Positions 868 to 55,511 of a DNA stretch of 64,000 nucleotides are shown here, in pieces. A program made the translations under genes and the position numbers. Source of the DNA: Cyanophora paradoxa CCMP329 (lineage: Eukaryota; Plantae; Glaucophyta); contig QPMI01000602.1 of the NCBI GenBank assembly GCA_004431415.1, positions 124,001 through 188,000 on the forward strand. The letters are read 5' to 3'. The notes beneath the pieces are model-generated. The model was not told the DNA's origin and ran no database searches. It worked only from the letters and a program-made list of their open reading frames with translations. Position 1 is the stretch's first letter. The number at the start of each line of letters is the position of its first letter.

Positions 868-1154
868 TGTATTGATCTGTGTCACACAGAGGAACGTATT
901 GCATGTGCATCGCTGCGTGCACTGTGTCATGCACTGTGGCATGCTCCTCTGCATGCGCACTCGATTTTAATGCGATTTCAAGGTGGGCGGCTTGCGTTTG
1001 TTCAACTGTTCGAATTCAATTTCAATGCGCTGTGAGCGCGCAGCATTCCTCACTGCCAGTCAAATTGCAAGCTGACATCAATGAAATAAGACATTTATTT
1101 GTCTGATGGATTAAGCCATGACTATGTCCAAAACGATTGCAATCATCCGCGCCT

Positions 1155-2203
1155 CTAAGCAGCAGGAACCGGTGGAAGCAAACTGCATACGACCTCCAGC
1201 AGAGCACAAATATTCTCCTGCAGGGAGGCGCTGTCAGAGAGAATGAGCGCATTCAGAAAACAGAAATTTAAAGAACCTGCAGCTGCGTCTTCTGCCCATC
1301 TGATGCGGAGACCTTCACGAGCAAGAAGGCGACAGTGTGAGAAGGTGTGAGAAAGAGAAAATAGCAGCAGCACCTCAGAGATGGAATCCTTTGTTTTCTG
1401 AATGAGAACTCTTAAAGTGTCTCTTTCCTTGGAAAGCCTGGCTAGTCGTGTAGAGGCTCTTGACTCCTCAATCGATGCCCTGCAATCTCGCATGCGGGCA
1501 ACTTCATCTTCTGATCCGGAAACAGCCTTGTTCTCGAGCTCCGAAATGCGAGCATGCGCGGTGGCTAAGTCTTGCCCCATTGCGGTCAGAGCCCGCTCCA
1601 GGGCCGCATTGGCCTGCTTGAATGCAATTATGCGAGTCTCGCTGCGCGCCTCGGATTCCTTGAGTGCCGAAATCTCTTGTTGAAGGGTTCCAGCCCGGCG
1701 CTCAATCCGCTCATGCTCCGAGTCAAGAGCGGCCCTCAGCTGTGTATTTTTATTACAGGCGCTTCGCAGGCCAGGGCAGCGACGCACTTCAGTTTGAATT
1801 TCCAATAGTTCCTGTCGCTGCGCCGCTGCGGTTTCAATCCTTGCAAAGTTTTGAATTTGGTTTTCGCGAGTCTTCTCTAATCTGATGCCGTACGTCCGGT
1901 CAACACGCGCGCCGCAGCGCATGTGCGCGCGCGAACGTACTCCAACTGCAATTGCCTGACGCGCTCCTCGAGCTGACGCTTGTCTTCAGCGAGCGACTTG
2001 ACCTGTTCGAATTCAATGCGCTGTCAGCGCGCCGCATTGTGGCTACAGCGCCAGCGCTCCTACACCTTTTGCAGCAGGAGCAGGCTCGAAGCGTCCGGCT
2101 GGCGCACGCGAGGGGACCCATCTCGCGGCGAGTCGCAGAACGCGGTCGCGTCGATGCTGTTGCGCCGCGGCGTTGGCGACGCTGGTGCCTCCGCCTGTGC
2201 CAT
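1155..2203 (-). CDS. Hypothetical coiled-coil protein (multi-exon; 3' end approximate)
   Basis: ATG at 2203 (MAQAEAPASPTPRRNSID...), GT-AG introns, long heptad-rich exon within ORF 1155-1922. Confidence 0.55.
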
Positions 2204-2532
2204 CGCTTGCACCTTGCGATAGTGTGCTTATCGGTGTCGCTCAGCGTGCTCCGTTCAATTTACGCTTCAATCCCTCCCTGGGTTAGGCCAAGGAACCCCC
2301 AACCTCGAAACTCGAACCTCGAACTAGGCTCGAAGAGCTCGAGGGGTACACGAGCAGGGGGGAGGGGAGGGACATAGGTCGAGGCTGGGGCATGCATGCG
2401 GTGCACTTGGAGACTGACTGAGGCTACATGAGAAGGGTTACACGACCGGCTCCAGGGGGCAAGGGGGTGAAGAGACAAAGACTGGGGATTTGGTAGATGC
2501 ACGTGTGGCTGCAGGCCTGTGGGGGGCTACCA

Positions 2533-4655
2533 CTACATGCGCTCTCCAAGCTCCAGGGTGCGGGTGAACTCCTCCTCGGTGAATGCAAGAAGTCGCGCCG
2601 CCTCAATATGAACCTGCCAACATTGGCTGATGCTGCTACCAGTATAGCTATCCGTTGGGAGGGGCAACCTCGTACCTTCTGGCGCTTGAGTACATCAATC
2701 AGTTTCAACTGCTTTTTGAAAGCAAGAAGCAGCTCCGCCTGTTGCAAAGGTATCAATGCAGGACGGTATATGTATTTGCAACAATGGAATCACCTTTTGG
2801 CGTTCAAGTCGTTTAGCATCTTGTTGTGCCTTTTCCAGAGCTTTTCTGCAGTGGCTCTCAATCACCCGGGGCGCTAGCGCTGCACATACGATGCTACAGA
2901 CCTGACAGAATCGGACGTTTCTCTTCCCTGTGAACGGGCTTCTTTCAGCTGCCCCTTCAGCTTCTCCACATCTTCAAGTGCACGGTTTAACCTGCAGGTG
3001 CAAAAATAAATTCTCACAATGCTGCACTTAAAGAGGACTCGCACCGAACTTCTCGGTTTCCAGACTCGCTCTCTAGCGTCTTTTGAATGCGCTGTGCCGT
3101 ATCCAGATCCTTGATACGGTTCGAAAAAGTCACTACACTACATAGAAATACATAGAAATCACTTTTTTTGCTACTCACCTTTTTCGTCACCATAAGTTGC
3201 CGCTCAAGGAGCTCATTCTTCTTTTGAGCTTCCTCAGCTGCTCGTTTTGATTTTTCTGCAACTGCCTGCAGGTCGCTTACAGGTGAGAATTTCGTGACAG
3301 CGAAACAGGCAACGTGCTCAAACCTCCAGAGCTGCATTCGCCTTCAGAAGCTTTTGCCGCTCCTGTTGGGAGATTAAGATTTGCAAACCTTTCGAAATGT
3401 TAGAGATTAGAACTCTACCTCGGCAATCTCAGCGAGAGTCTTGCTAGTCTCCGCAAAAGTGGCGTCCTGTTGAGGTTTGTCAGCAAGAAGATGACACAAA
3501 AGTAAGCGGAAGCACCCTCTGTTTTATCTCCGAAAGTGCTGTCACGGAAAACAGTATGAGCAGAACTAGGGAGAGATACCGCCGCAGAGCAGAGTAAATA
3601 CCTCTGTCAAGCTCCTGCTGGAGAACTGCCACCTTCGCCTTTAGAAGACGCACGGCCGCCTCTGCAAAATTGGTTTGAAGGGAAACCTGGCATTCATACC
3701 ATCAGTCTCACCTGGGCCCAGTCCGTCGGAGTCTACATCAGCTGCTGCATCACGCAATGGCGAAGATCCTCTGCACCAAAAGTTGGCGAGGCATTTACAA
3801 CACAAGTCAAAAAGTCGCCTCACCTGGGCTGTGGCTCGAATTCAGTTGAAGCCGATGCTAGGACAGATGCCATCACATCTCGCTCCCGGCCAGATCGTGG
3901 CCTTTCAATCGATGCAAGCATTAAGCCTTTCATCGCCTCAGCGAAGAGAGAATCACACCTTGCTGTGGAGCTCGTTGGCGGTCTGGATGACGAGCCCTGC
4001 AAGAAACAAATAAATGTTGATTGGAGATGATCAGAAAGCCGACCGGCTAGTACCGGTCGTGGTGCAGCAACGCGAATCGGTGAAGGCGGTGCATCCGCAG
4101 AGGAAGCTGCGGACATCGGCCTGGGTCGAAGCAGGCGTGAGTCTACGGCCTCCACACTCAGCATAAACACAAAACCGAACACCGCATTGGCCCCTGCGGC
4201 GTTGCGCCGCGAGCAAGTTTTTCTTCCTGGTCACGCTGCCGTCAAAGAGATTAGCTGTGGAGGGCTCGGCAAGTTTGCCGAGCACGAACCAGCGCTGCCT
4301 CAGCTTGCCGCATCGCACTCTGCTTCTTGGCTTCCAGTTGCTCATTGAGGCGCCTGAGCATCTGTGTAAGCGTGCGTCGTCGACAAAACGAGCCGTGAGG
4401 GCTCGCCTGAGCTCCACCTCTCGCTGAGACAGCTGGCTCCCAACATCGGACCCAGCGCTTCGTATGTATGTGTCTGCGCGCAGATGAGTATTGCAGCGGC
4501 ACTCCCTGCCTCCGCCAGCGCGCTGGCCGCTCACCGCCCTCGTCCGCGTAGGTGCTCGCAGAGTACTGGCTGTTCCCTGCGCTGCCGCGATCTAAACGCG
4601 CTATACAACGCATCGACCGCAGAAGACGGAAGCGCGCACCGCTAGGGCCCTCCAT
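2533..4655 (-). CDS. TEX9: Testis-expressed protein 9-like centrosomal/ciliary coiled-coil protein
   Basis: C-terminus FKKQLKLIDVLKRQK / VHIEAARLLAFTEEEFTRTLELGERM*; N-terminal RRLNEQLEAKK; many short introns. Confidence 0.8.
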
Positions 4656-4708
4656 CAAATTCAATTTTCTTCACGGCGTACCCCGGAAGGCAGCCTAAAC
4701 TTGCAAAG

Positions 4709-7700
4709 ATGGCGGAGCCCGTCTCTGGGGCCGATTTCTTGCCCCCGTTTGCCAACTCAGCTAACAAAAAGCTTCATTTCGAGGTGCGGTGCCCCCTGCG
4801 AACGCTCCCGATGCGCCGCGCCCTCCGCCGGAGGCAACGCGCCTGGGGCACCGCTGATAGCTGTAGCATACTGTCGTCAGTCAAGCTAAGCTTTACGGGC
4901 TCTTGCGCTGTTCATGCAGTCTGTGCCAGGCTCGTCTCGCAGTCAGGGCGCCTCAGCTAACACGTACTTGCCCGCAGATCAAAGATGCAGAGAAGAGGAT
5001 CTCTATGGTGGATGTGGAGCAAGATGCAAACGCGGAGCGCGTGCGCGTCATGGAGGAGCACCTCAAGAACGTGCAGATGGAGCTGCTGAACACGCAGAGG
5101 CTCGTCGACGCAAAGAACAAGGAGATCGAAACGGAAGATCACTTGAAGCAGCTAGCCGAGCGCGAGACGGGGCGGGTCAAGTCGGATATAGTCAAACTGA
5201 CGAAGCGTGCAACCGAGCTGCAGGACCAGGTGCGCGCTATGCCGGCTGAAATTTCCATTTAAAATACCTGACGCCGCATCGTTACGGCTGCAGCTGAATA
5301 TCGTCCAAAATGCTATCTTTCGTGGCAACGAGAAGATGGATCAATTCAAGCTGCTTATGAACTGGAATCAAGAAGAGATTGAGCAGTGGGCTCTTGCTGC
5401 TCGCCAGAAGGAAGACGATAATTTAGCTCTGCAGAAGTGCGCGCAGCACTACGCCATAGCCATCCGTTTCTAAGTTCAGTGCTGCAGATATATGAGAGCA
5501 GACGAGCTCAAGCTCAAGGAGCTGAACCTTCAAATCGAGAAGCTTGCGAAGGAGGTTCAAACTAAGAAACGAGAACTGGAATCTGAGGTGAGCTGATCTG
5601 CTTGCGCCAGTTTCTCGCTCTAATCTGGCAAACAGGTCACCGAAACGCAAGCAGCACAAATAGAGCTGGACAAGACGGCTGAAGATTTCCGCCAGCTGCA
5701 CCATGAGCGGCAGGAGCTTGTAACGCAGTGGGAGGAGGCCATTAATGCTATGCAGAAGCGTGATGAAGCGATCCGCGTTGCTGGCGAACACTACGCTGAT
5801 GGCAAGGTGAACGCTCAGTATAGTCCTTGACTTGGCATGAGGACTGGATTTCGATATTCTGCTCTGCAGATGGAGCTAAAAAAACGGCAAGACGTCCTCA
5901 CCGAGAAGAGCAACTTCCTGGAGACGATGAAGGCTAACAATCGGGAAGAGGAAAGCAAGATACAGGTGCACAATTGCAAACGGGAACGTTTAGAACGACC
6001 AGCATTTCTTGCAGCAACGAACGAATAACACATGTCGTTCAGGTTCAGGAGCGCAACCTCGCGAAAATGCGCCTACAGCTGGTTGGGGACCAGCAGGCTC
6101 TGGTCACATTCCAAGATGAGGTCGAAGTCGTAAAGAACACACTCGCCAAGGTGATCTTTATCCTTGATAAGGAAAGACTGCTCTGTTTTTCGCACTGTTT
6201 AAATTGTGCCGCGATTAGGTTGCAACAGACTTGGCTGGAAAAAGAGCAGAAGTTGTCCTTCTTAGGCAAGAGTTGGAAGACAAGAAGCGGAGGTCCGCAT
6301 GACGTTGTTTTGCATATCGCTTTCACAAATTTCATGCGTGCACAGACTCGAGAAGGGCCAGAAGAGTCTCACGTATACAAAGCAGCGGCTGGAGGGTGAG
6401 ATTTCAGCAGCATCATCATTGGAGCAGCGCAGTAAAGAGGCAAGTCAGTGGTTCTGGTACACCCTGCATGCGTTGACTTTTATATGTATCAGGTGGATGA
6501 GATGCACAGGGCTGAGGAGTTAAGGCTGAAGGCCGTTGAAAAAGAGCTGAATGAGCTGAAGGAGAACATGTTCAAGCAGTCTCAAGAGCTTTTTAAGCTG
6601 CGCCAGGAGGAGGCGAACCTGATTGCCGAAATTAGTGGAGCCCAGACTGCCAACAAGAACCTCCAATTGAAAATTCACCGCTTGGATCAGGAGACCTTGA
6701 AGCAGCAAGGTGCGAAGTGCTCGTCGCTCTATGCACACACGTAATCACTGTTAGTACACACGCAGAGCTGATTTACAATGCGGAGTTCCAAATTCAGCAG
6801 CTTGAGCGGAAGGTTTGCAGAGTAGCTGTTTTGTGCCCCGATTTCCTGACACACTTCCAGGTGGCACGTGCTGGTGGTGAGCGGACAGACGAAGAGAAGA
6901 AGGCTCTGAACGCAAGGATAGCTGAACTGCAGAAGCAGTTGGATGAACAGTCTGCTCAGGTACAATTCGAACTAACAAGACCTTTTAACTGTGCTAATAT
7001 GGGGAACACAGTACACAATGCTGGTGCAGCAGTCAAAGAGGCTGGCCGATGAGCTGCGTGCAGCACGCCGTAAAGTTGCGGAGCAAGCACGTGATCGTAG
7101 TACTCTTCAGGAGAAAATTGCGGATCTCAACTTGCAGGTCAGCATTTGTTGCACAAATGAACTCTTCCATGCGCTGATTAGCGGAGTAGAATGAAACCCT
7201 TGGCCGGAAGCTCAAGCAGACCATCCGCTCGAAGGAGGACGTCATGGTACGACTTACCTACTGTCAGAAGGGGAGGAGCGATTCTAAAAGTCGTTCCGTA
7301 ACAGGTTCAGCATGACGTGCTCAAGCTTGATGTCAAACGCTTGCGGGAGCAGCTGGCCTTGCGTGCAGATGAGGTTTACGGGCTTGAAAACCGCAAGTTC
7401 CAGCTGCAGCAGTCCATGGAGCAGCGTGAAAAGGAAGTTCGTATTCTGCTCGACCAACTGAAGATGGAGCTTGTGCGCGCCATTTACTTCAGCAGTCGCG
7501 TGCTTATGCCTTCTAACCTATCCGCATGTTTAGCGATTGGCAGAGGACGAGCGTCATCGCTGCCAGATGGAGCTCAACGAAAAAAGCATGAGAGTGAGAT
7601 CCCTTTTTACTGCTCCGCATGCAATACGCCTCTGATAGGATGGGGCGGACCAGGTTGACAAGCTGGAGAAGAAGTATGAAATCATGCTATCAAGAATTCC

Positions 7701-8718
7701 GCAAGAGGAGGGTGAAGGAGAGAGGACACAAGCGTATTATGTGATCAAAGCTGCCCAAGAACGGGAAGAACTGCAACGGCATGCCTTGCATCGATATGCC
7801 ATCAATGCAAAACTTTTGGCTGACTGCCCCTTGACGTTGTGCAGGGAGGGAGATGAGCTTGATGGGAAAATCCGAAAGCTGGAGCGCGAGGTGAAAGCTC
7901 TGCAGAGTACGCTGGACAAGCTTGTGGTGGCCAACACTGAGTGCGATCGCATGGTTTTCTGCTCCCTTGCAATGCCCTTATGGTTGCTGCGTGCAGCTAT
8001 AGGACAAGCTTCCAGAGGGCAGGAACAAGCGACGAGTCCTTCACTGAAAAGCAACAGCTGGAAGAACAATATGACAAGGTCGTGCGGACAGCGAAGTACC
8101 GGAGACGTGAGCAGGAGGCTCTTGAGCAGGATGTTGGAGCTCTAGACAGCAGGCTTCAGAACCTTGCGCGAGAGGAGGGTGGACTCCGCCAGCGTGTCGC
8201 TGAAGCAGATGCTCGCCGTACCCAGCTTGAACGCGAGGTATTGCTGTTGCATGGGTGCTAGCTTCCCGCTCATTTGGGATCTGACGACAATCTCGCAGAT
8301 TGCTGAGCAGATGGAGAAGAGGGATCGTGCATCACGCACACTTCAGCGGTTGACACGAGAACTGCGGAAAGGGTCAGGGGTGTCGGAGTCGCAGCAGCTT
8401 CCAGTGGAGGTGGACATCCGCCTGCAGGAGATGAAGCTGACGTCGAAGCAAATTCTCTACGCGCTTTCGCAATTGTCGAATGACTATCCAGATGTGGCAA
8501 GCTCATTCGAGCTGGCATGTGCGGAGCATGGCATCAAGCCACCCTCACGGCCACCTTCAGTAGCAGGCGATCGTCCTGGGACACCTGGCTCTGTTCGCTC
8601 CTTGGGCAGTGCTGGATCTCGTGGCTCAGCAGGCTCGCGGCAATCTGCATCATCTCGTGTTTCGCAAGGCAGCCGAGCAGCGCCCCGCCCTGTGGCAACA
8701 GTGCAGCTTGGGTTGTAG
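4709..8718 (+). CDS. CCDC39: CCDC39/FAP59 axonemal ruler protein
   Basis: [73 protein letters not shown]; ~20 short introns. Confidence 0.92.
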
Positions 8719-8911
8719 CCTCTTTCCCATCACAGCTTCTTTCCACCACTCTGGACACTAGCCTTCAAACCCCCAATCTTGACGACCCTCCCTGTTACCA
8801 CACCCCCCTCTCGTTCACATGCCTAGTGTTGTGTCATCCACTTCCTCTCGCTCACATCCCAACACTGTTGTCCCCTGTTTCTGGCCAGAACGACATTTGA
8901 ACAGTCTTGTG

Positions 8912-10690
8912 CTAGCTACTCGATTTCATGGGTCTGCAGAACTCGGCACCCACCGGTGCACCTTCAGACGTCAGGATAGAGAGTGGATAGATCGGACCAC
9001 CCTGCCATGGCAGTTAATACTTCATCGCTCAACACTCTATCGTGCACACCTTCGCTACGTAATTGCACCAGACTCGGGGTTCCTCTCCACGTAAAGGCAG
9101 TGAATCGATCTGAAAGTCGAAACATGTCACATACTCTGAAGTACACGTTGAGTGAGTGGATAGGAAACCTGTTCAACATCAACCCAAGCAGCCCCGATGC
9201 TTTCAAAGTCTGGGATTTGCTTGGGACTCGCATCTTGATCAACGGGCTCGCCACAAAAAATTACTCTCATTCTGCAGTGTCCCTGTTCAAACATCAGAAA
9301 TCAGGTGCTAAACACTGTCGATAGAACGCACCCGATGTGGTGAGAATTCTACTCTCAAAATCCCTGTTGGTCGGACATCCACATTCGCCTCCTCGCGTGT
9401 CTCCCGAATGCATGCTGCGAGTGGCTGTTCGCCTGCATCAACGTGCCCACCAGGAAGCCTGCCACAAACTTGAGTGCCAAGCAGATTTTTGGCCTGCACG
9501 GGACATACCACCATCCCCAATCAGCAACTTCATGGACGAGCAGGAACTTTCCATCTTTTCGTCGGCAGACCATCAAAGCAAACACTGCAAAAAGGTCATC
9601 GTAGAAAAACCTAAATCGTTCAGAATGCCAACCGTAGAGTTCAGTGCCTCTGTCTCCATCACCACGAATTTCTCCTCTCCCGATTGGCCCATGTGACTCG
9701 TGCAAGTGCACGGCAAAGTTCTGTTGGGGGGGGGGGGGGGTCAAGGCATGGCTTCTCTTTCTTCGAAAAGCTCTGGCGGAAGAGCTGACCTTCTGCTCCC
9801 TTGAGCAAATCGGGCATTTCGCAGATATGTTCTTGTCCTTGCCTGGGGACAGCAGAGGTTGAATTCTCAAGGACAGCAAGACGGGAGGGAAGAAGAATGG
9901 GCACCGTGAAAAAGCGGCATATGGTGCCAAAGTTGATCCTCGGACATTCCTTGACGTCCGCAGTCTGGGCAGCGAAAGGTCTTGTCGTTCCGACTGCGAA
10001 ACGGGTTCCTTGAAGAACTTGCCGAATTTTCTATGTGCGCGTCAGTGAAAGGCATTCGAGATCGTCGAATTGCTGACCGGCGCCTCGAAGAGAGTCCGTG
10101 GCGCGCTTGAGAGCAGCGCACAGCACGTCTGGAAAGGCTCAAAAAATACAAGAATCGAAATACACGAAAAACAAATCCCTGCACCGATATCGTGTGTGTA
10201 CACGTGCGAGCCCTGCGGTGGACCAGATCAAGACCCACAGGTGCGGCGGGGCCGGCCGGAGCCGCCCCGGTGGGGGCCGACGCGCGGTGGCCGCTGAGCG
10301 CTGGAGAGACGTACGGCCCGCGACAACACTGTGCGAGAAACCGCATCGCGAGAGGCTTCCGAGGGGTCGTATGTAATGCACAGTGTCCGCTCGTTACTCC
10401 GATGCTTCGCCTCCTCCTGTGGGGGCGCGCGTCACGCCAAGAAACCAGGCGTACGTAAGATCATACGCTAGCACCAGCGTTTGCTTCACTTCAGCGAGGC
10501 TTGCAGCCCGCGCATCAAGCACGAGAATTTCGTAATCCTCGCGCTTGAGCTGATCCGCGACGAGGCCGGCGTCGAAGTTTACCATAGAGAGGGAGGCTCC
10601 CGAATCAATGGCAGCACACACTGGCTCGCGCAGGGACGGCCCGGCCGAGGCGCTGCCGTCAGCTGCAGTGACCAGCAGGACCCTCGCCAT
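8912..10690 (-). CDS. Nudix hydrolase with N-terminal C2H2-type zinc fingers (5' exons less certain)
   Basis: Nudix box LPGGHVDAGEQPLAACIRETREEANV; CPDC..LWHHMPLFH and CPIC..FAVHLHESH; tail LRGEEPRVWCNYVAK/GGPIYPLSIL. Confidence 0.75.
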
Positions 10691-10861
10691 GCGCCGGCGT
10701 AAAGCTTCGCACGCCCCCTAGGTTGTACCCCTAAAACGAGTTGACAGTTCACTCCACAAACCGCAGTGCACATCCCACGCTTGTAGCCCGGGCTTGCTAC
10801 TATACAGTACGTGTCGACGTCAACTGCTTCGCATTCCTTCAACTAGTACTGGCCACAGATG

Positions 10862-10942
10862 AGCCCCCAGGCAAAACTGTCCAGAACTAATGTACTGGCC
10901 TGGCCAGCCCCCAGGCGAAACTGTCGAGAACTAATGTTCTGG
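10862..10942. repeat. 37-bp direct repeat pair
   Basis: agcccccaggc(a/g)aaactgtc(c/g)agaactaatgt(a/t)ctgg at 10862 and 10906. Confidence 0.8.
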
Positions 10943-10971
10943 AGACAATAAAAATATGCAAATCCAGCAAC

Positions 10972-12950
10972 CTACTCGGAGCCCTTGGCCGGTGAGCCGT
11001 CATCCATGTCAGAATACGAGAGGACGGCATTCAGTTCGCCTCGGATGGCAGCCAGAAGCAGGACCGATCCAAGGCAGCAAGGAACCAGGTAGAGGAGGGC
11101 AGGCTGAGAGGAATGTGTTGAGTGAATGATTACGGGTAAAAAATGAAAAAAGTTCAGGCAGCCTTAAAAAAGTTGGGGGCACCTGGGCAGCCTTAAAAAA
11201 GTTCATGATGGCGACTGTTGCAACGAGTCCAGCAACATATCCTCCAAAGACCGTATAGAAGTACCTTGGAAGCGAGTCGGGATTGCGGGGCAGGAACCAT
11301 ACATAAGCCCAGCGAGCTTACGGCTTTGGCAGGCCATTCAGAGAAGGGCCCAATGCCGATATATGGCTCGCGGCCTTCAGAGAGCGGTCAAAAGGAGACA
11401 GCTTTTCAGTGAAAAGCACAGCACCTCATCCTTCAATGACTCCTTTGACTTGTCCTTCAACTTGTCCTTCGATTTTTCGTTCTCGTCCTTTGTCTTGTCC
11501 TTGGCACCTCCACGGGGCTTTGCGAGTGCGCGGTGCACGTCCATCCGGAGCAGCAAGGCAATGAAAACGCCTGCAGCAGCAGTCAGAGAATGGGGAATAG
11601 GAAGCGGTCGGGCACGGACCTGGAATCACGACATCCCCGAGGCCCAGCATATTGAACTGCAACAAGGCGCTCAAAAAGCACACACGGCAGCAAAGAGAAA
11701 AGACAGGGTGACGGACCTGAGGAGGGGCGGCAAGCAGATCACGGGGGAAGAGGAACTTGATCGGGGCATCAAACTTCTTGGCCACAGTGACCTGCTCATG
11801 GCTCATCTACTCTCGGCTGGAAACAAGAAGACGGAAAAAGATGTTTACCATGACATCCGTGCCGAAAACCCAGAAGATGTCATAGAAGAACTGTGAGTGC
11901 CGCTCAGGAGAATTCGGCAAATGCAGTTTGCTGGCATACCAGGCCGCAGAGGAGGATGAGACCGACCTGCATGTATATGAGGCACTGATAGCAGCTGTAA
12001 GCGAGCGGGAAGTGAATACTTTGAAGGAGCCGAGCGAGATCATTTCGATGCCTTGTATGCAGAAGGCCATCCTGGAAAGCCGAGACGTCAAGAGGAGAGA
12101 GAGAAGGCAAGAGATGAGCAGCTGCACCCAAAGAGGTTGTTGGCAGTCCAGTGCTTCTTTGCAACATACCTGGGAGGTGGCTTAGTGTTCTACCTGCTGA
12201 TTCCAAGGGCACACACCAGGCAGAAAAGGCGACCGCGAAAATCCATCGCAGCAGGTCGCCGGGGGTCGTGGAGAATTGAATGCCGGATGAGCCTGGTTTT
12301 GAACGCCAGAAAGGGATTGGGATGCAGCCCTCGATGCGGCGCTCATAGACTGCATCCGGAAGCACGTAATCGAACACAGTGGCTGATGCGCCCGCAAATG
12401 CAATGACCCCTGCGACCTGCGTAAGTGGCGATTTCGCACCCTTGTGGCGAGCTCGAGGCCCTACCAATTACTATGATGTATGCTGTGAGCAGCAAATTGA
12501 CTGCAAGGCGCGGTGTCAGGGAACACAATGGGGCGCAATGTGAGAAGAGGGACGGAGCCTCACTCAGGTCTGGGCTGAACAGCTTGAAGAGAACGTAGAG
12601 GCCAAAGAGGGCGCACGAGGCGATGAGGGGGAATCTGCACACAGGTCGCATTCCCTCAGACTTCAACAACGCATTCGATCGGATATGCGCACTTGTACGC
12701 ATCTGACTCCTGCACGACGCTTTCCGCCTTCTGCTCCTCCGGCACATGTACGCTCTTGTGCGCTGCGCGCTCAAGCGATCGGTTCGGACGCGTGCGAGCG
12801 CGTGCGCGGGCGCTCACCGCCGATGTAGATGCACGCGCAGCTGACGAGCAGCATGTGCGCTGGAACGGGTACTTGCACGAGGCTGTAAGGGAAGAACACG
12901 CTGCCGATGAGCAGGGCATGCAGGACCATGCAAAAGTCAGGCCCTGCCAT
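10972..12950 (-). CDS. SPP: Signal peptide peptidase (GxGD aspartyl protease, A22B)
   Basis: FFYDIFWVFGTDVMV, KKFDAPIK, MLGLGDVVIPG, AAQ/PALLYLVP; stop at 10972-10974. Confidence 0.92.
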
Positions 12951-13160
12951 GGCTGCTTCGGACGCGGCGCGCGCCGCTGAAGAACTTCAGATGTGGTTCG
13001 TCCCCGTGCTCCTCGTCGTTCTAGTGCTCCGCGCCGAAGCAAAGCCGGTCTGCTGCGAAGCAAAAAGCCGATGCTGAATCGCCGGCGAGGGGCTCGAGGG
13101 GATGCCAAAGCTTAAGCTGCGGTCGGGACCACGAACTGCGAGCCGTGTACCCCTTCATGA

Positions 13161-13361
13161 GAAAAGCTGTTTTTAGTCTTTTTTTGTGACCTCCTTGTTT
13201 CAAAACTCCAATTACAAAGAGTTCTTTAGCTCCAGAATTATCAGCACAATGTAATCTTGTACCGATAGTTATACCTGCTGATCTTTTTAAATATGTTTTA
13301 TTCATTTCTTAACTACTTTCAATACTACGTGGCTCTTTATTTTTGATAGTCTTCTTTCTGA
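13161..13361 (-). pseudogene. rps17-rpl14: AT-rich foreign fragment: 3' end of uS17 overlapping (ATGA) the 5' part of an archaeal-type uL14
   Basis: SERRLSKIKSHVVLKVVKK* followed by MNKTYLKRSAGITIGTRLHCADNSGAKELFVIGVLKQGGHKKRLKTAF; sharp GC drop; no introns. Confidence 0.75.
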
Positions 13362-13593
13362 TCATGATCTCTCCTGCTCTTTACACGGTAGCTACACGCC
13401 CACATGCTACGTGCTGGTACCCGGGGGATGCCGGGCCCGTAGGGGGATAGTAGAGCAGTGCCAAGCTCGCAAGCCCCGAAGAACGAGGCGCAAACCGGGC
13501 TACCCCCGTCTGCGAGGCCTATCCTTGGAAGGCGGCCTACGCGATGAAGAAGAAAATAATACTACGGGCTATTCTAACCTAAGCTATCGCCGC

Positions 13594-13661
13594 GAAGACC
13601 TGCCGCGATCTTAAGCTAACCGGGCTAATACTACGTGAAGACCTGCCGCGATCTTAAGCTA
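13594..13661. repeat. 25-bp direct repeat pair
   Basis: gaagacctgccgcgatcttaagcta twice, 43 bp apart. Confidence 0.8.
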
Positions 13662-13715
13662 TCCATGGCCAGAACTTGATCGTAATTCTGATCAGTCGAC
13701 CTGGCCTTTGTCCTG

Positions 13716-13870
13716 GGGAGGGACCGGACTCTGTGGAAAAGTTGCAGGTGGCCGAGTTTGACACGGAGTGTAATCGTTGGTCCTTTTTGTTGGTTACAGA
13801 TGCCCCAAATGCCCGTACCGCATTTTCTGTCGCCGTCGTGGGCCAGACTCTTTACGTCTTAGGAGGAAAA
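13716..13870 (+). pseudogene. Isolated kelch-repeat exon fragment
   Basis: VAEFDTECNRWSFL..APNARTAFSVAVVGQTLYVLGG; no flanking gene model found. Confidence 0.55.
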
Positions 13871-14656
13871 GGTCTCCTTCAGCTCAACCTCGCCCTTCTC
13901 CCCCTGCAGCTGGGCCCTCCCTGCCCCTTAGCTAGCCTGTTTGTCTTTGCAACGAGATATATTTGCAATTGCTAAAGGAAGGAACAGACTATGAGAAACT
14001 TCGCAATAGCAAAGAAAGGCCTGCTACAACCTCCTCTGGCTTCATTATATAGTTAGACAAGCGAGTCCCGGGTCCCTGCGGAGCAGGAGTGGCCTTGGGG
14101 TCTTGGGGCTTCAAGGCGTGAGGGTGGCTGCTCTTTGTTTTAACCGGGGGCGCGCAACCGCGCGCGGTTACACAGGCGAGGGGGAGAGAAACAGGGGGGC
14201 CACTCAGCAAGGGTATACGTACACTCTCAAATGAGGTCCAAATTTTTTTTCTATAATCTCATTTCAAGTTCTGAAGTTTGCCAGAGGACAGGCACAGACC
14301 TAAGGGCCTCTCCTTTCCTGGCCCCAAGGTCGATATACGAATTTCGCTTTCTAAACTTTTGTACATGTTACCATAGTACAAGTGACCAATATTAATTAAT
14401 AATGCGCATGCAACATGTACAGACCTACTAGGCTAAGGGCCTCTCCTTTCCCCAAGGCCGCCCGGGCCCCGAGACGACCCCCCGCCGCCACAAGACGCGA
14501 GCGATGTATACGTATGCACCACGCCGTTTTAGGGGCCTCTGCGGCGCTGCTATACCTTTTCACCCTGGTCCACGGGCGTGTCTTTTGCTTCATCTCTCTC
14601 TCGTTAACGTTTGGGCACCTGCTGCTGCAGCTATAGCTATAGCTAGCTAGATCTAG

Positions 14657-15185
14657 AGTGTCCGCGGGGAGGCGCATTACTCTCCTTGGGGGCCACGCAG
14701 GGCCCAGCGCTAGCCGGCCAGCTTGCTGGTGGGCGCGGCTGGGCCCGCGGCCGCGGCGGCCGCTGTGTACATTCCCACACTCAGTGACTTGTAGCCCGGA
14801 CCTGCGTTTTAGTATGTGTCCCAATGCAAGACTAGACCCCCCTACATATACGTATATGCCATCCTTGCACAGCAACATCAAAAATTCCATGCAATTGGCA
14901 AGGTCGGACTTTGAATTCAATTTCGATTACGACTTGGTTGGGCTCCGCCACCGCCCTCAGACGACCCCGCCACTTCAAGATGCGATGCTGCGCCCGCAAT
15001 GCGGGCACCTCAGGGCCTGTAGCCAGTGTCCGCGGGAAGGCGCATTACTTCCCTCTGCAGCCGGGGGAACGCAGAGCCTGGCGCCGGCCGGCCAGCTTGC
15101 TGACATGGTGGGCTGGGCCCGCGGCGACGGCGGTCGCAGTGTACATCCCACACTTGTAGCCCAAATGTGTCCAAACGCTAGACCG
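14657..15185 (+). repeat. Two copies of a dispersed ~170-bp non-coding repeat family (core GTGTACATCCCACACTTGTAGCCCGGAC)
   Basis: Copies at 14657-14836 and 15025-15185; reverse copies at ~47328-47500, ~50206-50380, ~53344-53500, ~62430-62520; forward copies at 63318-63461. Confidence 0.8.
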
Positions 15186-15309
15186 AAGTCCATGACTCTC
15201 GCTCTGCAGACACCAGTGCCGAGTATTCCTGATCTGCAAGACTGTCCGCCTCCACGTCCACCTCGCTCTGAGAACAGCGTAGAAAGAGAAAACAGGTCAG
15301 ACGGTGGCT

Positions 15310-16934
15310 CAGAATTGAAGCTTCAAGCTGGAAAAACAAACGTTGATTTCTTCCAAATGTGTGCTCGTGTCACCAACATCGCTCAAGTAGGGAACGAAGG
15401 ATTCTTGCACCTCCGCCTGACCCTCTGCGTCCGCCACTGTCTGGGCCTTTTCGTCCAGAGCCACTGTACATGTATGCAGTTACTCAGTGGGGCGTGACTC
15501 AGTTTTTCGGATGTCAAAAACACGCACAGATCCTGAAGACAGTGCCATTGTCTTTCCCACCGCACATTTGCCGATCATCGCCTGTGCATGGAAGCTTGCA
15601 GGTTCCAGCTTTTTCCCCATACCTGCCGCACATGAGTAGACAAGAGAAGGGGGAAAGAGAGGGGGGGGAAGGGGGGGGAGGGAGGGAAGGGGGGGGGGGG
15701 GGGTTGGAATCCTCACTTCGCTACTTGTGGCCAAGCTCTTGAAGTGGGCAGCGTTATGTCAGAGAAAGAACGACGAGAGAAACCGACGAGAGAAACCGAT
15801 CACTTTTCGGCGTAGCACTTGTTCCCCTCCCTCAAGGAGATGAAATCCCCTGCTACAAACCCCTTCTGCAAACCGAGAGGCGCTCAACGACCGGCAAAGG
15901 GGGCTCTCGGCAGCCTCAGGACCACGCACTGCTTTTGCATTCGCCTGTCCCGAGGGATTGGGGAGTAGGTGAGGGGCGTGCACCAGACGACGCAGAGGCT
16001 CGCATCCAACTGGACACAGCGGCGGCTTACCAAGCACTTCGAGATGGTCATGGTCTTCGATGTCTTCACGAGGGTGCGTGCGGCAGGGTCGGCAGGGGAG
16101 TCTCCAAAGCAGCCTGCACCCGGCTCGCGTCTGAGCGCGGGGCAGGGCGGGACAGGGCCGGCCGGGTGGAAAGCACCGATATATTGAGCTATAGGGGTCG
16201 TCTTGTACAAGGACAAATGCCCGAAGCCGCCGCACTTTGTCGTCTCTCCCGAGCACGTTGCGGGACACTTGTCCGCGGGGGCGCCGCCCGGGCTGTGCTT
16301 CAGGGCGAGCCGCAACTCGTTCTAGACGGGAGCAGCGGCGCGTGAGTATGAGCATGCGCGCCGTAGACGCGCGCAGCGGCGCGTGAGAACGATGGATCTG
16401 GGCCGTGCGTGGCAGCACCAGGCGCACCGTGCCCCAGCACTGCGTCCCGTACTGCCCTTGCTCCAGCCCGAACACGCGGAACTGTAGGAGCGTGCGTCAG
16501 TGCTGCGAGCTCAGTCTGCCCGCAGCGGAGGCACTGGGCTTACACCGTGGAACTTCGCTAGCTCGTTACACTTCCCAGAGTTCATCTGTGGCCCCTGGCC
16601 GAGATAGCTGCGACGGCAATGTAAGCGAAGGGCTTTTTGCGAGTACGATTTAGAGCGCTGCTAGGACTAGGGCGCCGAGGCTGGGGCGGACTAGGGGGCC
16701 GCGCGATCCTCCTTGAAGTCGGCGCTGCGAACAGCAGTCAGAGGTGACTGCGCATCTCACGTGACTAATGCAGGATCTGGCGCACTAGCATCCAAGATAC
16801 AGCTCCGGCGGAAGCGCTTTCGGCGATGCGAAGGCAGACGCGGCCGCCTGAGCTGCCGCTGCAACTGCCGTTGTCGAGGTAGCAGCTGATGTCACCGGTG
16901 CAACTGATGCAGTCGGTGCAACGGCCGCGGCCAT
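15310..16934 (-). CDS. WSC-domain (carbohydrate-binding) protein with two WSC repeats; both ends approximate
   Basis: Spliced: PPELYLGCY/ADFKEDRAAPY/YLGQGPQMNSGKCNELAKFH/FRVFGLEQGQYGTQCWG..KCPATCSGETTKCGGFGHLSLY; second repeat YIG/CFGDSP..MTISKC..CKLPCTGDDRQMCGGKDNGTVFRI; Ala/Thr/Ser-rich N-terminus. Confidence 0.78.
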
Positions 16935-45557: not shown

Positions 45558-46815
45558 ATGCGCCCTTCACTCAATCTTGAGCTTTCAAAGCTGAGCTGTC
45601 GCCTGGACCAGCCTCGCTCAACTCAGTTCTTTGTCAAACGGGCTAGCTTTGAGCGTCCTAGCGCGCTGCTGCGGCGCACGTGCAGTCAACTGCCACTCGT
45701 ACACTCGTACCGGATCAACACTTCTGGTGCCTAGCAAGCATGCAGGACTCCTCCACAAGTACTCGCAGGCAGTCATCTGCTCCACGTACGTTGGTTGCCC
45801 CGCGAGCCTATGCGCTTTGCCACCGATCGCGTGCACGCACAGTGGCGCCGACGGACCTAGAACAGACTCCAATGATGTCGCATCTCTCTCTCGCCCAGAA
45901 CTTTCTGATCAAGCAGGTAACTAACTTTTGCTTGGAGCTCGAGCGGGGCAGCCGCTGACCGCGGTGCTTGTGCGCAGTACAACTTCTGGTCCCGCTGGAA
46001 GGATGCGCGGCTGTCTTCCGTCCAGAAGAGCGGAGGGAGCGCCCGCGCCGTTTCTGCTTCCCGAAAGCGCGCCGCCAGCTCCGAACTTCTTCCGGCAACG
46101 CGGCGATCCTCGAGGAGAGCCCGCCCAGTGCACAACTCCGAGTTCGAAGGAGAGACAGCGACAGTGGAAGCTGAGCCTGATCGGCCCGATCACCTGCCGC
46201 TGCAGCCTCCGACCGTCTCAGCTCCGACCAGCCCTTGCTTCGTTAGAAAGTTGCTGGCTTGCGCAGGGCGGAATCTCAGCATTTCTCAGGCTGAGATCTC
46301 TAAGATCGTCTCGGAAATCTCCGGCGACGGTGGCGAGCTCGAGCCGTCCGTGCACGGGTTGATCCTTCTTCTTCACCGGTGGTGAAATCCGTTTCTTTTT
46401 TGTCTGGTTTGCTGGGTCTCACCGCGTCTGCTGCACGCTTGTACGCAGGCCGTTCCGCATTGACCTCTGCGTCGAGATCAAGCGACTCCTCCTCTCCGTG
46501 CTGCGCGTGTCCAACATTCCGACGCATTTCGCGGTCGGCGACTTCTCCGTCGGTGACTCCTTTTCTGCAAATCGCCACGAATCGCACATCTGAATTTGCT
46601 CCGCAGGCGCATCCGTTCTCGAGCGCCTTTTCCAAGAGCAGGACAACTTTTCTTTAGTGGTGGAGGCACACCATTTCGAACAGCAAACACCGACTGGCAG
46701 AGGAATATGGTTGGAAGACGAGGACGAGGAGAACCTGGACGATGACCTGAAGCCAGCAGATCCCAATGCAGCCCCGGAGGTGTCCACTTTCTCTGTCGAT
46801 GATTTCTTCGCATGA
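45558..46815 (+). CDS. Hypothetical multi-exon protein with acidic C-terminus (start and frame uncertain)
   Basis: Splice-bounded exons; last exon ASVLERLFQEQDNFSLVVEAHHF..WLEDEDEENLDDD..FSVDDFFA*. Confidence 0.45.
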
Positions 46816-47923
46816 GGTAGACACTTGGCTTCGATCCTTTTCGCATTGGGAGCTTCTTTTGCATGTCTTTTTCTGATTTCAATTCAAATTATGCGTGTAC
46901 GTCACGCAATTCCAGATTTCAGGCAGAAAATTTTGATGAAAACAGCCAGTACTATAGCTATATATTTAGCATAGCTCGTTGCAGTAGATCTATATCTAGA
47001 GTTTCTCTTGTCTCTTGCTTGAGTACATCCGATGCATAGAATATCAATCACCTCAAGCTTGTCAAATTGAACTTGTAACATGGAAGGTGCCGCAGTGCAA
47101 AATATATTTGCAACTTTGCAAGATTGCGTGTATGTCCCTGCCCGTTCCCCGGGCCTGATTCGAATCCCTGCAGCGGCCGGTGATGCATATGCATCTACTA
47201 GGCTAGCGAGCACGTTGCAGTTGGCGCCAGCCCGTGTGTCATGATATACATGATCAATATCATGATCATGATGGAGCCTGGGAGCTCTCATTTGCAATTG
47301 GCTTATGTGCATGTCGCATATGCATATGCATTGGGACACGTACTAATTATAAAACGTTAACGCAGGTCCGGGCTACAAGTGTGGCCCATGGCCAGTGGGA
47401 AAGTACACTGCAGCTGCAGCTGCGGCCGCCGCGCGGCCGCGGGCCGGCGCCCATGGCCAGCCCACCAGCCTGGCAGCATGCGCAAGCTGGCCGACCGGGC
47501 CCTGCGTGTCTGCTTCGATTCAATGATTCTATTTATAATAATTATAGTTCTAGATCTAGCTATAGCTATATATATAGATCTACTGGGCTAGATCGATATT
47601 TGTTATCCGATGATCAATATTAATCATGGAATGTTGATCATCTGGCCGGCGGCAGTACGTCCGACCGATGACCGCGCGCGCTGCTGCGTGCACGTTCCAA
47701 GTTCTTCCAACGCATGCATGCATGCGCCGCGGCGCCGGGCTCGCGGGGTGCACGTGCTCGACTGAAAGAATCACCCAGCGGGGGTATACGTATACTTATC
47801 AGGTCAGGTCTCGGTAGTGTCCGAGCCCGCGACGGCCGCATCCATTAGCCAACGGTCGAACTGCAAGTAGCAGCAGCCCAACGAGCTTTCCAGGCGCAGC
47901 GCAGTTCGCTTCACATCGATATC

Positions 47924-48733
47924 ATGGAAGTTCTGAAACGTCCGCGCGCGGAGGAGTCCAACGGGCACAATGCTGCTGCTGAAGATCACGAGATCCGCGC
48001 CCTGATCGTCGAGTTCTGTAAGCAGGTGGGCGCGATCAATTCTTGCCGTGCCCACACCCCATGATCGTGTGCTCAGTTCTACACGCTCGGCTGGGTTTCT
48101 GGAACGGGAGGAGGAATTAGTGTGCGCTCGCCCAGCGGCCGTGTTTACGTCGCACCGAGTGGGGTGCGCCTGATCGATCCGGCGAGCCTCTCCTGCGTCG
48201 CGTCGACCGCCTCGCGGCAGGTACAAAAGGAGCGCATCTCCCCGGAGGATCTCTTTGTCCTGGACGCGAAAGGGGAGACTCTTCAGGCTCCTCTCAACCC
48301 GGACTTCAAGCCATCAGCATGCACGCCTTTGTTTATGAACGCGTACCGCATACGGAACGCAGGTGCAGACCCCTCTATAAACCGAGCACGCTTCGCACTG
48401 AATCCATCGAGCATATTAGGCGCTGTTATCCACAACCACAGCGTCTCGGCGGTGTTGGCCACTTTGCTGTTTCCGGGCAATGAGTTCAAGTGCACACATT
48501 TGGAAATGATCAAGGGTATCGAGGGGGCATGGCTACCACGACACGCTTGTCGTCCCCATTATCGAAAACAGTGCGTTATATAAGCAGTTTTTCTCAACTC
48601 TTGCGTAATTCTCTCTTCAGCCGCATACGAGTGCGATCTTGCCGACAGCTTGGCAGAGGCCATCGAGAAGTACCCTAAGTCCTCTGCTGTGCTTGTCAGA
48701 CGTCACGGAGTCTACGGTACGTGTCAGGTTCTG
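47924..48733 (+). pseudogene. APIP: APIP/MtnB copy 1, 3'-truncated
   Basis: Lacks the last exon; extra G at 48523-48527 shifts the frame (could be a homopolymer error). Confidence 0.85.
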
Positions 48734-48738
48734 ACTCC

Positions 48739-49693
48739 AACAGACTCCAATGATGTCGCATCTCTCTCTCGCCCAGAACTTTCTGATCAAGCAGGTAACT
48801 AACTTTTGCTTGGAGCTCGAGCGGGGCAGCCGCTGACCGCGGTGCTTGTGCGCAGTACAACTTCTGGTCCCGCTGGAAGGATGCGCGGCTGTCTTCCGTC
48901 CAGAAGAGCGGAGGGAGCGCCCGCGCCGTTTCTGCTTCCCGAAAGCGCGCCGCCAGCTCCGAACTTCTTCCGGCAACGCGGCGATCCTCGAGGAGAGCCC
49001 GCCCAGTGCACAACTCCGAGTTCGAAGGAGAGACAGCGACAGTGGAAGCTGAGCCTGATCGGCCCGATCACCTGCCGCTGCAGCCTCCGACCGTCTCAGC
49101 TCCGACCAGCCCTTGCTTCGTTAGAAAGTTGCTGGCTTGCGCAGGGCGGAATCTCAGCATTTCTCAGGCTGAGATCTCTAAGATCGTCTCGGAAATCTCC
49201 GGCGACGGTGGCGAGCTCGAGCCGTCCGTGCACGGGTTGATCCTTCTTCTTCACCGGTGGTGAAATCCGTTTCTTTTTTGTCTGGTTTGCTGGGTCTCAC
49301 CGCGTCTGCTGCACGCTTGTACGCAGGCCGTTCCGCATTGACCTCTGCGTCGAGATCAAGCGACTCCTCCTCTCCGTGCTGCGCGTGTCCAACATTCCAA
49401 CGCATTTCGCGGTCGGCGACTTCTCCGTCGGTGACTCCTTTTCTGCAAATCGCCACGAATCGCACATCTGAATTTGCTCCGCAGGCGCATCCGTTCTCGA
49501 GCGCCTTTTCCAAGAGCAGGACAACTTTTCTTTAGTGGTGGAGGCACACCATTTCGAACAGCAAACACCGACTGGCAGAGGAATATGGTTGGAAGACGAG
49601 GACGAGGAGAACCTGGACGATGACCTGAAGCCAGCAGATCCCAATGCAGCCCCGGAGGTGTCCACTTTCTCTGTCGATGATTTCTTCGCATGA
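48739..49693 (+). pseudogene. 5'-truncated copy of the 45558-46815 hypothetical gene
   Basis: Part of tandem unit 2. Confidence 0.5.
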
Positions 49694-50809
49694 GGTAGAC
49701 ACTTGGCTTCGATCCTTTTCGCATTGGGAGCTTCTTTTGCATGTCTTTTTCTGATTTCAATTCAAATTATGCGTGTACGTCACGCAATTCCAGATTTCAG
49801 GCAGAAAATTTTGATGAAAACAGCCAGTACTATAGCTATATATTTAGCATAGCTCGTTGCAGTAGATCTATATCTAGAGTTTCTCTTGTCTCTTGCTTGA
49901 GTACATCCGATGCATAGAATATCAATCACCTCAAGCTTGTCAAATTGAACTTGTAACATGGAAGGTGCCGCAGTGCAAAATATATTTGCAACTTTGCAAG
50001 ATTGCGTGTATGTCCCTGCCCGTCCCCCGGGCCTGATTCGAATCCCTGCAGCGGCCGGTGATGCATATGCATCTACTAGGCTAGCGAGCACGTTGCAGTT
50101 GGCGCCAGCCCGTGTGTCATGATATACATGATCAATATCATGATCATGATGGAGCCTGGGAGCTCTCATTTGCAATTGGCTTATGTGCATGTCGCATATG
50201 CATATGCATTGGGACACGTACTAATTATAAAACGTTAACGCAGGTCCGGGCTACAAGTGTGGCCCATGGCCAGTGGGAAAGTACACTGCAGCTGCAGCTG
50301 CGGCCGCCGCGCGGCCGCGGGCCGGCGCCCATGGCCAGCCCACCAGCTTGGCAGCATGCGCAAGCTGGCCGACCGGGCCCTGCGTGTCTGCTTCGATTCA
50401 ATGATTCTATTTACTAAGTTATAATAATTATAGTTCTAGATCTAGCTATAGCTATATATATAGATCTACTGGGCTAGATCGATATTTGTTATCCGATGAT
50501 CAATATTAATCATGGAATGTTGATCATCTGGCCGGCGGCAGTACGTCCGACCGATGACCGCGCGCGCTGCTGCGTGCACGTTCCAAGTTCTTCCAACGCA
50601 TGCATGCATGCGCCGCGGCGCCGGGCTCGCGGGGTGCACGTGCTCGACTGAAAGAATCACCCAGCGGGGGTATACGTATACTTATCAGGTCAGGTCTCGG
50701 TAGTGTCCGAGCCCGCGACGGCCGCATCCATTAGCCAACGGTCGAACTGCAAGTAGCAGCAGCCCAACGAGCTTTCCAGGCGCAGCGCAGTTCGCTTCAC
50801 ATCGATATC

Positions 50810-51874
50810 ATGGAAGTTCTGAAACGTCCGCGCGCGGAGGAGTCCAACGGGCACAATGCTGCTGCTGAAGATCACGAGATCCGCGCCCTGATCGTCGAGT
50901 TCTGTAAGCAGGTGGGCGCGATCAATTCTTGCCGTGCCCACACCCCATGATCGTGTGCTCAGTTCTACACGCTCGGCTGGGTTTCTGGAACGGGAGGAGG
51001 AATTAGTGTGCGCTCGCCCAGCGGCCGTGTTTACGTCGCACCGAAGAAGAAGAAGAGTATGTATAAGACACGCCCGAGCCGGTTGTGCGGTTTTGACGAA
51101 AGGCGAAGGACCCGAAGGCCCGAAGCACAATCGACAGTGAACCAACCAGACAAGGGTAGTGGCGGCGCAAACGCCTTACGGTCTACCATGTATGCCCCGG
51201 CGGTCCGGCGCTCATACACGCAGACACGGAAAGCAACCACAGACATCCCAATGCGGGCCTCTTCCTAATGCCGGCCTGGGGGAGTCCTGGTCACGACCTC
51301 ACGTGGTGCGCCTGATCGATCCGGCGAGCCTCTCCTGCGTCGCGTCGACCGCCTCGCGGCAGGTACAAAAGGAGCGCATCTCCCCGGAGGATCTCTTTGT
51401 CCTGGACGCGAAAGGGGAGACTCTTCAGGCTCCTCTCAACCCGGACTTCAAGCCATCAGCATGCACGCCTTTGTTTATGAACGCGTACCGCATACGGAAC
51501 GCAGGTGCAGACCCCTCTATAAACCGAGCACGCTTCGCACTGAATCCATCGAGCATATTAGGCGCTGTTATCCACAACCACAGCGTCTCGGCGGTGTTGG
51601 CCACTTTGCTGTTTCCGGGCAATGAGTTCAAGTGCACACATTTGGAAATGATCAAGGGTATCGAGGGGCATGGCTACCACGACACGCTTGTCGTCCCCAT
51701 TATCGAAAACAGTGCGTTATATAAGCAGTTTTTCTCAACTCTTGCGTAATTCTCTCTTCAGCCGCATACGAGTGCGATCTTGCCGACAGCTTGGCAGAGG
51801 CCATCGAGAAGTACCCTAAGTCCTCTGCTGTGCTTGTCAGACGTCACGGAGTCTACGGTACGTGTCAGGTTCTG
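50810..51874 (+). pseudogene. APIP: APIP/MtnB copy 2, 3'-truncated and interrupted by a 258-bp insertion
   Basis: Insertion inside the VAPSG codons; lacks the last exon. Confidence 0.88.
51045..51302 (-). mobile_element. Recent 258-bp insertion, probable 3' end of a non-LTR retroelement/SINE with (CTT)n tail
   Basis: Absent from the two sister copies; minus strand ends ..catactcttcttcttct; small target deletion, no TSD. Confidence 0.6.
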
Positions 51875-51879
51875 ACTCC

Positions 51880-54886: not shown

Positions 54887-55382
54887 AAAAAACGTGTAGA
54901 ATTTTTAAATTAATTGGATGACAGCTGTGCTATCAGCTGCAGTCCGAGTTCGAAGGAGAGACAGCAGCCACAGTGAAAGCTAGAGAGTCGCTTTGCATGT
55001 GTGATTACAAGCGCCCCGTCTGCTAGTCGTAAGTCGTGGTTCAGATTATAATTATGCCTATAAAACGCATCTATCATATATAGACTGTAATACTGTCAGA
55101 AGCACAAGTACTGACTCAGTGAGAAAGACGATCTCGTTTTCGTCCAGAAGGACTCTGGGACTGCATTGACTCCCTATAGACTAGTACTGGTACTTGAGAG
55201 CGAGGGCGGCGACACTAGTACTATAGCTAGCTTCAAGCTTTCAAAGTTTAAAAACAGACCTTTGTGTATAGTACGATTGCCGCAGTGCGATTAGGCTGTA
55301 AGATCTACAATTGCAATTACTGAAGGAAGGCATGATAAGATCTAGAGCCTCGGAGCAGCCGTGACCCCCTTCCCCTCCTCAA

Positions 55383-55424
55383 CCCCCCCCCCCCCAACAC
55401 ACACACACACACACACACACACAC
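55383..55424. repeat. Poly-C plus (CA)n microsatellite
   Basis: Directly visible. Confidence 0.9.
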
Positions 55425-55511
55425 AGCAGCGGTAGTGGTTTTTGGTACCGGTTTCAAGCGCACGAAGGCTAGGAGTGTCTGGCGCGCCTGTAGCTAGAAA
55501 GAGCAGCTGTG

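Follow-up and report, generated by a model that had tools for sequence, protein, structure and literature searches.

The DNA of bacterial endosymbionts is found inserted in the nuclei of their hosts (e.g., Wolbachia in insects). Raw fragments of symbiont operons then lie within a host chromosome, as the fragment described here does; the donor in those cases is a known bacterium, whereas here it is of archaeal type and symbiosis is only one possibility. Insertions of organelle DNA (NUMTs and NUPTs) enter double-strand breaks by NHEJ according to PMC5570036, which also gives 178 NUMT and 374 NUPT BLAST hits for the likely host of the present locus, and cites one NUMT that formed a new promoter. 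The locus resembles such insertions, as outlined there, in being a short, AT-rich, intergenic piece of prokaryote-type DNA with truncated genes that was likely added by end-joining, but differs from them in that its protein is of the archaeal/eukaryote-cytosolic type and that no matching organelle contig is present in the sequencing runs. With the archaeal S10-spc cluster (TIGR03673 and NF006344; loci L001, L002 and L004–L033) it shares the gene order, a –4 overlap, a cysteine at residue 20 (Cys20) and the loop length, but it is a 201-base scrap that does not exceed 60% identity to a reference, has a far lower GC3 and is located in a eukaryotic chromosome. Finally, AT-rich ultra-reduced archaea occur together with eukaryotic algae, with hosts that are unknown, according to 10.1101/2025.05.02.651781. 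The Ca. Sukunaarchaeum mirabile and Sukuna-clade described there resemble the presumed donor as AT-rich, long-branched archaea found with a eukaryotic alga, and some analyses there put Sukunaarchaeum near Aenigmatarchaeota/Nanohalarchaeota, i.e., the region of the best placements of our locus. Unlike our locus, to which it is likened by description, Sukunaarchaeum (genome AP040136) is marine, has a whole circular genome and, within the sections of that source considered here, is not reported as integrated in a host nucleus. In the literature searched (including passages of PMC12644861), no case was described of an algal nucleus containing raw DNA from an archaeal operon.

The locus was found in a 64-kb stretch of DNA (the window, i.e., the whole stretch that was analysed) as a foreign AT-rich insert of 201 bp at 13161..13361, with a GC content of about 0.31 versus 0.62 and 0.55 in the 500 bases flanking it on the left and right, respectively. 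The lowest-GC 200-mer of the whole 64 kb is located at 13158–13357. On its minus strand the insert carries an archaeal-type uS17–uL14 operon junction fragment, in which uS17 is represented by its C-terminal 19 residues and uL14 by its N-terminal ~49. Both the GC figures and the reading frames thereby confirm the position and content of the ~200-bp AT-rich island that had been pointed out in the first-pass annotation. When two archaeal operon loci were compared with the window via tblastx, the island was the sole match and no sibling was found in the 64 kb. Moreover, no coding was recognisable by eye in the other AT-rich 200-mers of the window, and an Rfam search over 12000–16000 gave no credible match.

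On its left side, the insert is separated by about 205 bases from the downstream start codon of a host signal peptide peptidase gene (11090..12950, minus strand, lower end approximate), whose ATG is at 12950 and which displays YD, LGLGD and QPALL motifs near 11884, 11647 and 11106, respectively. A contig from a probable RNA run covers the 5′ region of this gene as far as 13145, stopping ten bases short of the insert's left junction. This probable RNA run (X22) gave no cover on the island itself, which has no bearing either way on its expression. On its right side, the insert is followed by a multi-copy host repeat (13375..13570, right end approximate) with a summed depth of up to about 30–55x that of a single locus. 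Two unannotated multi-copy repeats (13375–13570 and 14072–14176) are located by the island, with summed depths ranging from tens to more than a hundred times the single-locus depth and without an Rfam match. Host genes in the window have short, GC-rich introns, and the leader of a plastid-type EF-Ts encoded in the window starts with MAF and lacks a signal peptide, which we take to indicate a primary plastid. Introns and leader both fit the glaucophyte Cyanophora paradoxa as the likely host. The window also displays sharp GC domains (about 50–57% at 1000–15500 and 46500–57500 vs. 63–76% at 16000–46000), with expressed intron-bearing genes in both types of domain. The 45861–54733 region consists of three tandem copies (97–99.5%) of a unit of ~2.9–3.1 kb with AT-rich spacers, and this unit includes a gene that by eye resembles methylthioribulose-1-phosphate dehydratase.

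The second frame of the island (13159..13305, minus strand; 49 codons, MNKTYLKRSAGITIGTRLHCADNSGAKELFVIGVLKQGGHKKRLKTAFL) is beyond doubt uL14, starting from an ATG at 13305–13303 and displaying Cys20, the CADNSGAKEL motif and an 11-residue loop. It scored 26.5 bits against Pfam PF00238 (above the gathering cut-off of 23.6), reached a best E-value of 2.7e-6 in a PDB search, and matched a profile of 27 archaeal uL14 sequences with an E-value of 1.8e-10, the next piece of the window having an E-value of 1.9. The invariant uL14 residues are kept. The homology stops where the conserved GD is due, after which the frame continues into host DNA for a total of 94 codons.

As to the type of uL14, residues 4–47 of the fragment aligned without gaps to positions 4–47 of the archaeal NCBIfam profile NF006344 (33.1 bits), and the archaeal TIGR03673 and the bacterial/organellar TIGR01067 scored 32.1 and 20 bits, respectively; the whole-protein cut-offs of NF006344 and TIGR03673 (168 and 191 bits) are out of reach for a fragment of 50 residues. 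In the alignment, bacterial uL14 lacks the first ten residues and four residues of the loop. This ungapped archaeal profile fit, at 33.1 vs. 20 bits, supports the archaeal/eukaryote-cytosolic rather than bacterial type that had first been assigned from the N-terminal extension, CADNSGAK and the 11-residue loop. The cysteine of the motif is residue 20 in 91 of the 140 references that remained after dropping seven rows without the motif, and residue 28 in the one eukaryote; its occurrence at residue 20 in 27/27 of the operon loci is a biased count, as the start-codon finder first tried the codon 19 codons before the cysteine. Residue E28, the most frequent one in archaea, is shared by 94/147 references, the one eukaryote among them having N at this position, and eukaryotic uL14 alignments from PDB show GAKN or GARN at the motif. 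The VLKxGG loop also occurs in archaeal loci L015, L016, L026 and L032. The 10 best PDB matches were nevertheless eukaryotic uL14 proteins (30 bits, vs. 24.9 bits for the first archaeal entry), and the top Atlas cluster was labelled Eukaryota, with the Atlas matches being generic uL14 clusters only.

The other frame of the island (13302..13361, minus strand) holds the 3′ end of uS17, i.e., 19 codons (SERRLSKIKSHVVLKVVKK) running from 13361 to 13305, followed by a TGA stop at 13304–13302. Since library-wide searches miss so short a piece (19 residues, without a match in these searches), the uS17 call rests on a position-specific test. In this test, in which a profile of 27 archaeal uS17 C-termini was run against all six frames of the window, the piece ranked first among the 2227 pieces compared (E-value of 0.27 window-wide), and its score was reached by only 8/20,000 residue shuffles and 7/20,000 base shuffles. 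It aligned at the very end of the profile (positions 58–72 of 75), and displays the C-terminal R-x-L-S-K motif and then a short tail directly before uL14, which is exactly the place of uS17 in archaeal operons. We take the VLKV-K of this tail to resemble eukaryotic RPS11.

Both frames are joined by an ATGA (13305–13302, minus strand) in which the uS17 stop overlaps the uL14 start (–4). The frames, the shuffles and the alignment at the profile end thus uphold the original observation of a uS17-like C-terminus with its stop overlapping the start of uL14. A –4 overlap is also the commonest uS17–uL14 spacing among the archaeal loci compared (11/27), these being 26 loci from the Thermoplasmatota phylum plus L002, after six of 33 loci had been dropped (two duplicates of L001, two without a uL14 motif match and two without a uS17 match). 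The one bacterial locus compared has a 25-base gap between both genes. Since glaucophyte plastids share the gene order and have 30.5% GC (see below), a NUPT is excluded not by order and GC but by the protein type and the run data. The prokaryotic operon order put forward in the first-pass annotation is present together with its –4 overlap, but its occurrence in the glaucophyte plastid as well was missed there.

At both ends the insert abuts the hexamer TCATGA (13155..13160 and 13362..13367), as had been noticed at the outset, which could be a target-site duplication or a repair scar. Because two sites picked at random have some hexamer in common within 8 bases in 6% of cases, this pair points only weakly to a target-site duplication. 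Both homologies end at TCATGA, with the right copy containing a TGA that interrupts the uS17 frame upstream and uL14 losing its conserved GD at the left copy, which suits a 6-base duplication. No empty-site allele was seen, and the insertion is deduced from composition and homology. Separately, TCATGA is a palindromic restriction site that we take to be that of BspHI; restriction-mediated insertion was considered but is disfavoured, as the donor uS17 frame would then contain a stop at this site and a repeat of this kind has the 6% chance probability given above. A 7-base inverted repeat (CCGTGTA/TACACGG at 13143–13149 and 13381–13387) was spotted by eye a few bases outside each TCATGA, and is probably due to chance.

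All 17 sampled words were present in 20 sequencing runs that carry one organism label throughout, with no RNA run among them. A flag as possible assembly source is attached to 17 of these runs but not to the other three, which are rows from one 2012 sample. One contig spans 12300–13354 with zero differences in 4/4 runs, crossing the left junction and extending into the adjacent host gene, while a contig of 78 bases (13325–13402) bridges the right junction in X3, X4 and X5, and also in X1 and X9. The depth of this right-junction contig was 36.9, 47.6 and 60.4 in X3, X4 and X5, respectively, vs. 44.5, 44.1 and 67.4 for the main contig, and the depth across the island is that of a single locus. 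In total, five DNA runs from 2012 to 2024 have contigs bridging both junctions, so that the assembly chimera against which the first-pass annotation had advised a junction check is not supported. In each of three whole DNA runs, 13060–13385 was covered at 80% likeness by just three contigs, and none of these was a high-depth organelle-like contig or a longer donor contig on the island. This result also speaks against the organelle match that had been proposed as a check, albeit indirectly, through the contigs of these three runs.

A second, lower-depth contig has 30 bases in common with the island (13325..13354, plus strand) and diverges into different, GC-richer DNA after 13354, at a depth of 0.45 (X1), 0.23 (X4) or 0.56 (X9) relative to the main contig. 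Its continuation was not found in the 64-kb window. The first bases of this second path share CCTGCTCTT with 13373–13381, and its minus strand displays an acidic host-like frame with a stop inside the island. For the Cyanophora paradoxa genome, PMC6704402 reports a probably haploid state and duplicated features amounting to 34.7 Mb, so that a second partial copy and a rearranged sub-population are both possible. The second path is possibly a second partial copy or a (microhomology-driven) rearranged allele.

No close relative of the island uL14 was found, the best ungapped identity being 24/40 (60% over 40 residues) to L002, a metagenomic contig carrying a complete archaeal ribosomal operon. 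In comparison, the median nearest-neighbour identity among the references is 90%. L002 was also the only locus retrieved when metagenomes were scanned for CADNSGAKEL[FY][VI]I. Among 50% representatives, five matches were obtained, three of them unrelated repeat proteins, with P0004 as best match (50% identity). A scan of 48 of the 64 parts of GTDB yielded at least one locus, with the Thermoplasmata locus L001 likewise having 50% identity to the island uL14, and 55/61 Thermoplasmatota genomes matched at 30–52% identity. Moreover, a search of 5.8 billion clusters revealed no protein of 51–165 aa that has three 5-residue words in common with residues 1–48 of the island uL14. The viral contigs scanned contained no relatives and the plasmids gave only a bacterial rplN with an E-value of 0.7, which lends no support to a viral or plasmid carrier. 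As an aside, the core ribosomal operon is also present in 12 plasmid-labelled records of Clostridioides difficile, L034 (NZ_CP149721.1) and 11 similar ones, which are likely misfiled pieces of chromosome.

When 48 residues of uL14 were placed by likelihood on a fixed 59-taxon tree (ignoring gaps, and including one eukaryote and one bacterium), the best placement was as sister to P0004/P0006, followed by L002 (delta lnL of 2.0), and the sister differed by program (FastTree and IQ-TREE), being P0004/P0006 in one and L002 in the other. The AU test kept attachment to the eukaryote (delta lnL of 6.5, p-value of 0.30) and to the bacterium (delta lnL of 4.2, p-value of 0.31), as well as many other branches. 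Since the tree rejects neither of both, we base the archaeal call on the gene order, the indels and the fit to the profiles, from which the donor was probably an archaeon. Among the 147 references, K45 is common only to the island, P0004 and P0006, although long branches and AT bias could produce this sharing and either sister. P0004 and P0006 themselves are an orphan pair of lysine-rich archaeal-type uL14 proteins (84% mutual identity, at most 52% to anything else, long tree stem), and possibly represent another unsampled, fast-evolving archaeal lineage. Both this pair and L002 fall near Aenigmatarchaeota-labelled sequences, a lead that gives the donor roughly an even chance of having been DPANN-like.

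The codon usage of the island is that of an AT-rich donor. Its GC content by codon position is 0.39/0.37/0.15, with a GC3 of 10/67 (p-value of 0.0005 vs. shuffles) in comparison to 0.80 and 0.84 in two host genes. Since only 1/27 of the fourfold-degenerate sites in the island is G or C whereas host GC3 is about 0.8, the DNA appears to have barely been altered since its capture. Neither a stop codon nor a frameshift disrupts the coding sequence within the insert. Together, the AT codon bias, the intact frames and the invariant residues suggest that the amino-acid divergence mostly stems from an AT-rich donor under selection and that the capture was recent in evolutionary terms, though before 2012. 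A regression on 32 loci, by extrapolation, predicts a GC content of 0.31–0.33 for the donor operon. The capture from an AT-rich, archaeon-like donor that was initially suggested is supported by the profile scores, the register, the –4 overlap and E28, while a highly reduced donor, as judged from codon bias and divergence, is possible.

Among the alternatives, an ultra-reduced, Sukunaarchaeum-like archaeon in or on the alga might have shed several pieces into the nucleus, with the island being one of them. The extreme synonymous AT bias, the changes at conserved uL14 positions (e.g., P45K and G48F) and the lack of any 51–165 aa three-word sharer among the 5.8 billion clusters would suit such a symbiont, as would Sukunaarchaeum itself, for which 10.1101/2025.05.02.651781 gives 28.9% GC, a very long branch and enrichment with eukaryotes of 5–20 µm. 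Nevertheless, this scenario is doubtful, given that there is one 201-base piece with no sibling in the 64-kb window, that the Sukuna-clade is reported from the sea while the host is a freshwater alga, and that the predicted operon GC of 0.31–0.33 is also reached by ordinary free-living or archaea-hosted lineages. A eukaryotic donor whose genome is reduced and AT-rich, like that of a nucleomorph or a microsporidian-like parasite, and in which the genes of cytosolic RPS11 and RPL23 would abut by chance, would account for the eukaryotic top matches in PDB and Atlas, for the eukaryote placement kept in the AU test (p-value of 0.30) and for the LFVI after GAKx, which resembles eukaryotic uL14. However, it requires both the archaeal gene order and the archaeal –4 overlap to have arisen by chance, and is at odds with the archaeal-length N-terminus, the archaeal E28 and the VLKxGG loop found in archaeal loci. 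As the host moreover seems to have a primary plastid, and hence no nucleomorph, and the literature search gave nothing on an RPS11–RPL23 order in nucleomorphs, we regard a eukaryotic donor as improbable.

A decayed NUPT of the rps17–rpl14 junction of the host plastid (or a NUMT) has to be weighed as well, since rps17 and rpl14 are adjacent in glaucophyte plastids and Cyanophora plastids have about 30.5% GC according to PMC6330054, and NUPTs are common in the host genome according to PMC5570036. Yet, taking for granted that organelle contigs are present in the three whole DNA runs, these revealed at 80% likeness only the 30-base second path besides the main contigs, and the depth across the island is single-locus. 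The uL14 fragment also has a ~10-residue N-terminal extension, the CADN cysteine and a longer loop that are absent from the bacterial protein, is scored 13 bits lower by the bacterial than by the archaeal profile, and could not have obtained archaeal-length insertions through decay while its fourfold sites stayed 96% A/T, making an organellar origin highly improbable. Chimeric assembly, or the joining of contaminant DNA in silico or while the libraries were prepared, is more remote still: the BspHI-type palindrome at both island ends, the second path leaving the island at 13354 and the bacteria in cultures of the likely host (with 36 contigs removed, according to PMC6704402) would be compatible with it, but the junctions are identical in runs from 2012, 2019 and 2024 (with X1 and X3 not being flagged as assembly sources), and the contigs show zero differences and a depth equal to that of the flanking host gene.

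Directly seen are both frames with a –4 overlap between them, an N-terminus and a loop of archaeal length, a codon bias of donor type and the linkage to host DNA on either side. The island is a real 201-base piece of the chromosome, and we consider it likely that it came from an unsampled, AT-rich and fast-evolving archaeon and was pasted in by end-joining repair. In this course of events, DNA from an archaeal cell would have reached the algal nucleus, where end-joining closed a double-strand break with it and left a duplication of 6 bases, and the insert is predicted to have been tolerated upstream of the signal peptide peptidase gene. Since both genes are truncated, no working ribosomal protein would be made and the insert is likely non-coding. 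Its location just upstream of the signal peptide peptidase transcript makes it a candidate for promoter DNA, although it is unlikely that it supplies AT-rich promoter sequence to this gene.

Capture of foreign DNA at breaks is familiar for organelles and bacterial endosymbionts, and what is new here is the archaeal-type donor. The island suggests that archaea-type DNA reached a eukaryotic nucleus recently, from a lineage without a close relative among billions of sampled proteins, and would hint that AT-rich archaea live in close contact with algae. Should it be a lone scrap, the island would be a curiosity about the uptake of environmental DNA. If sibling fragments exist, however, eukaryotic assemblies may record associations between ultra-reduced archaea and their hosts, which would be testable in a cultured model alga. 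Finally, if the donor was an ultra-reduced symbiont or parasite of the alga, further fragments would make part of its genome readable and would tie an archaeon to a culturable eukaryotic host.
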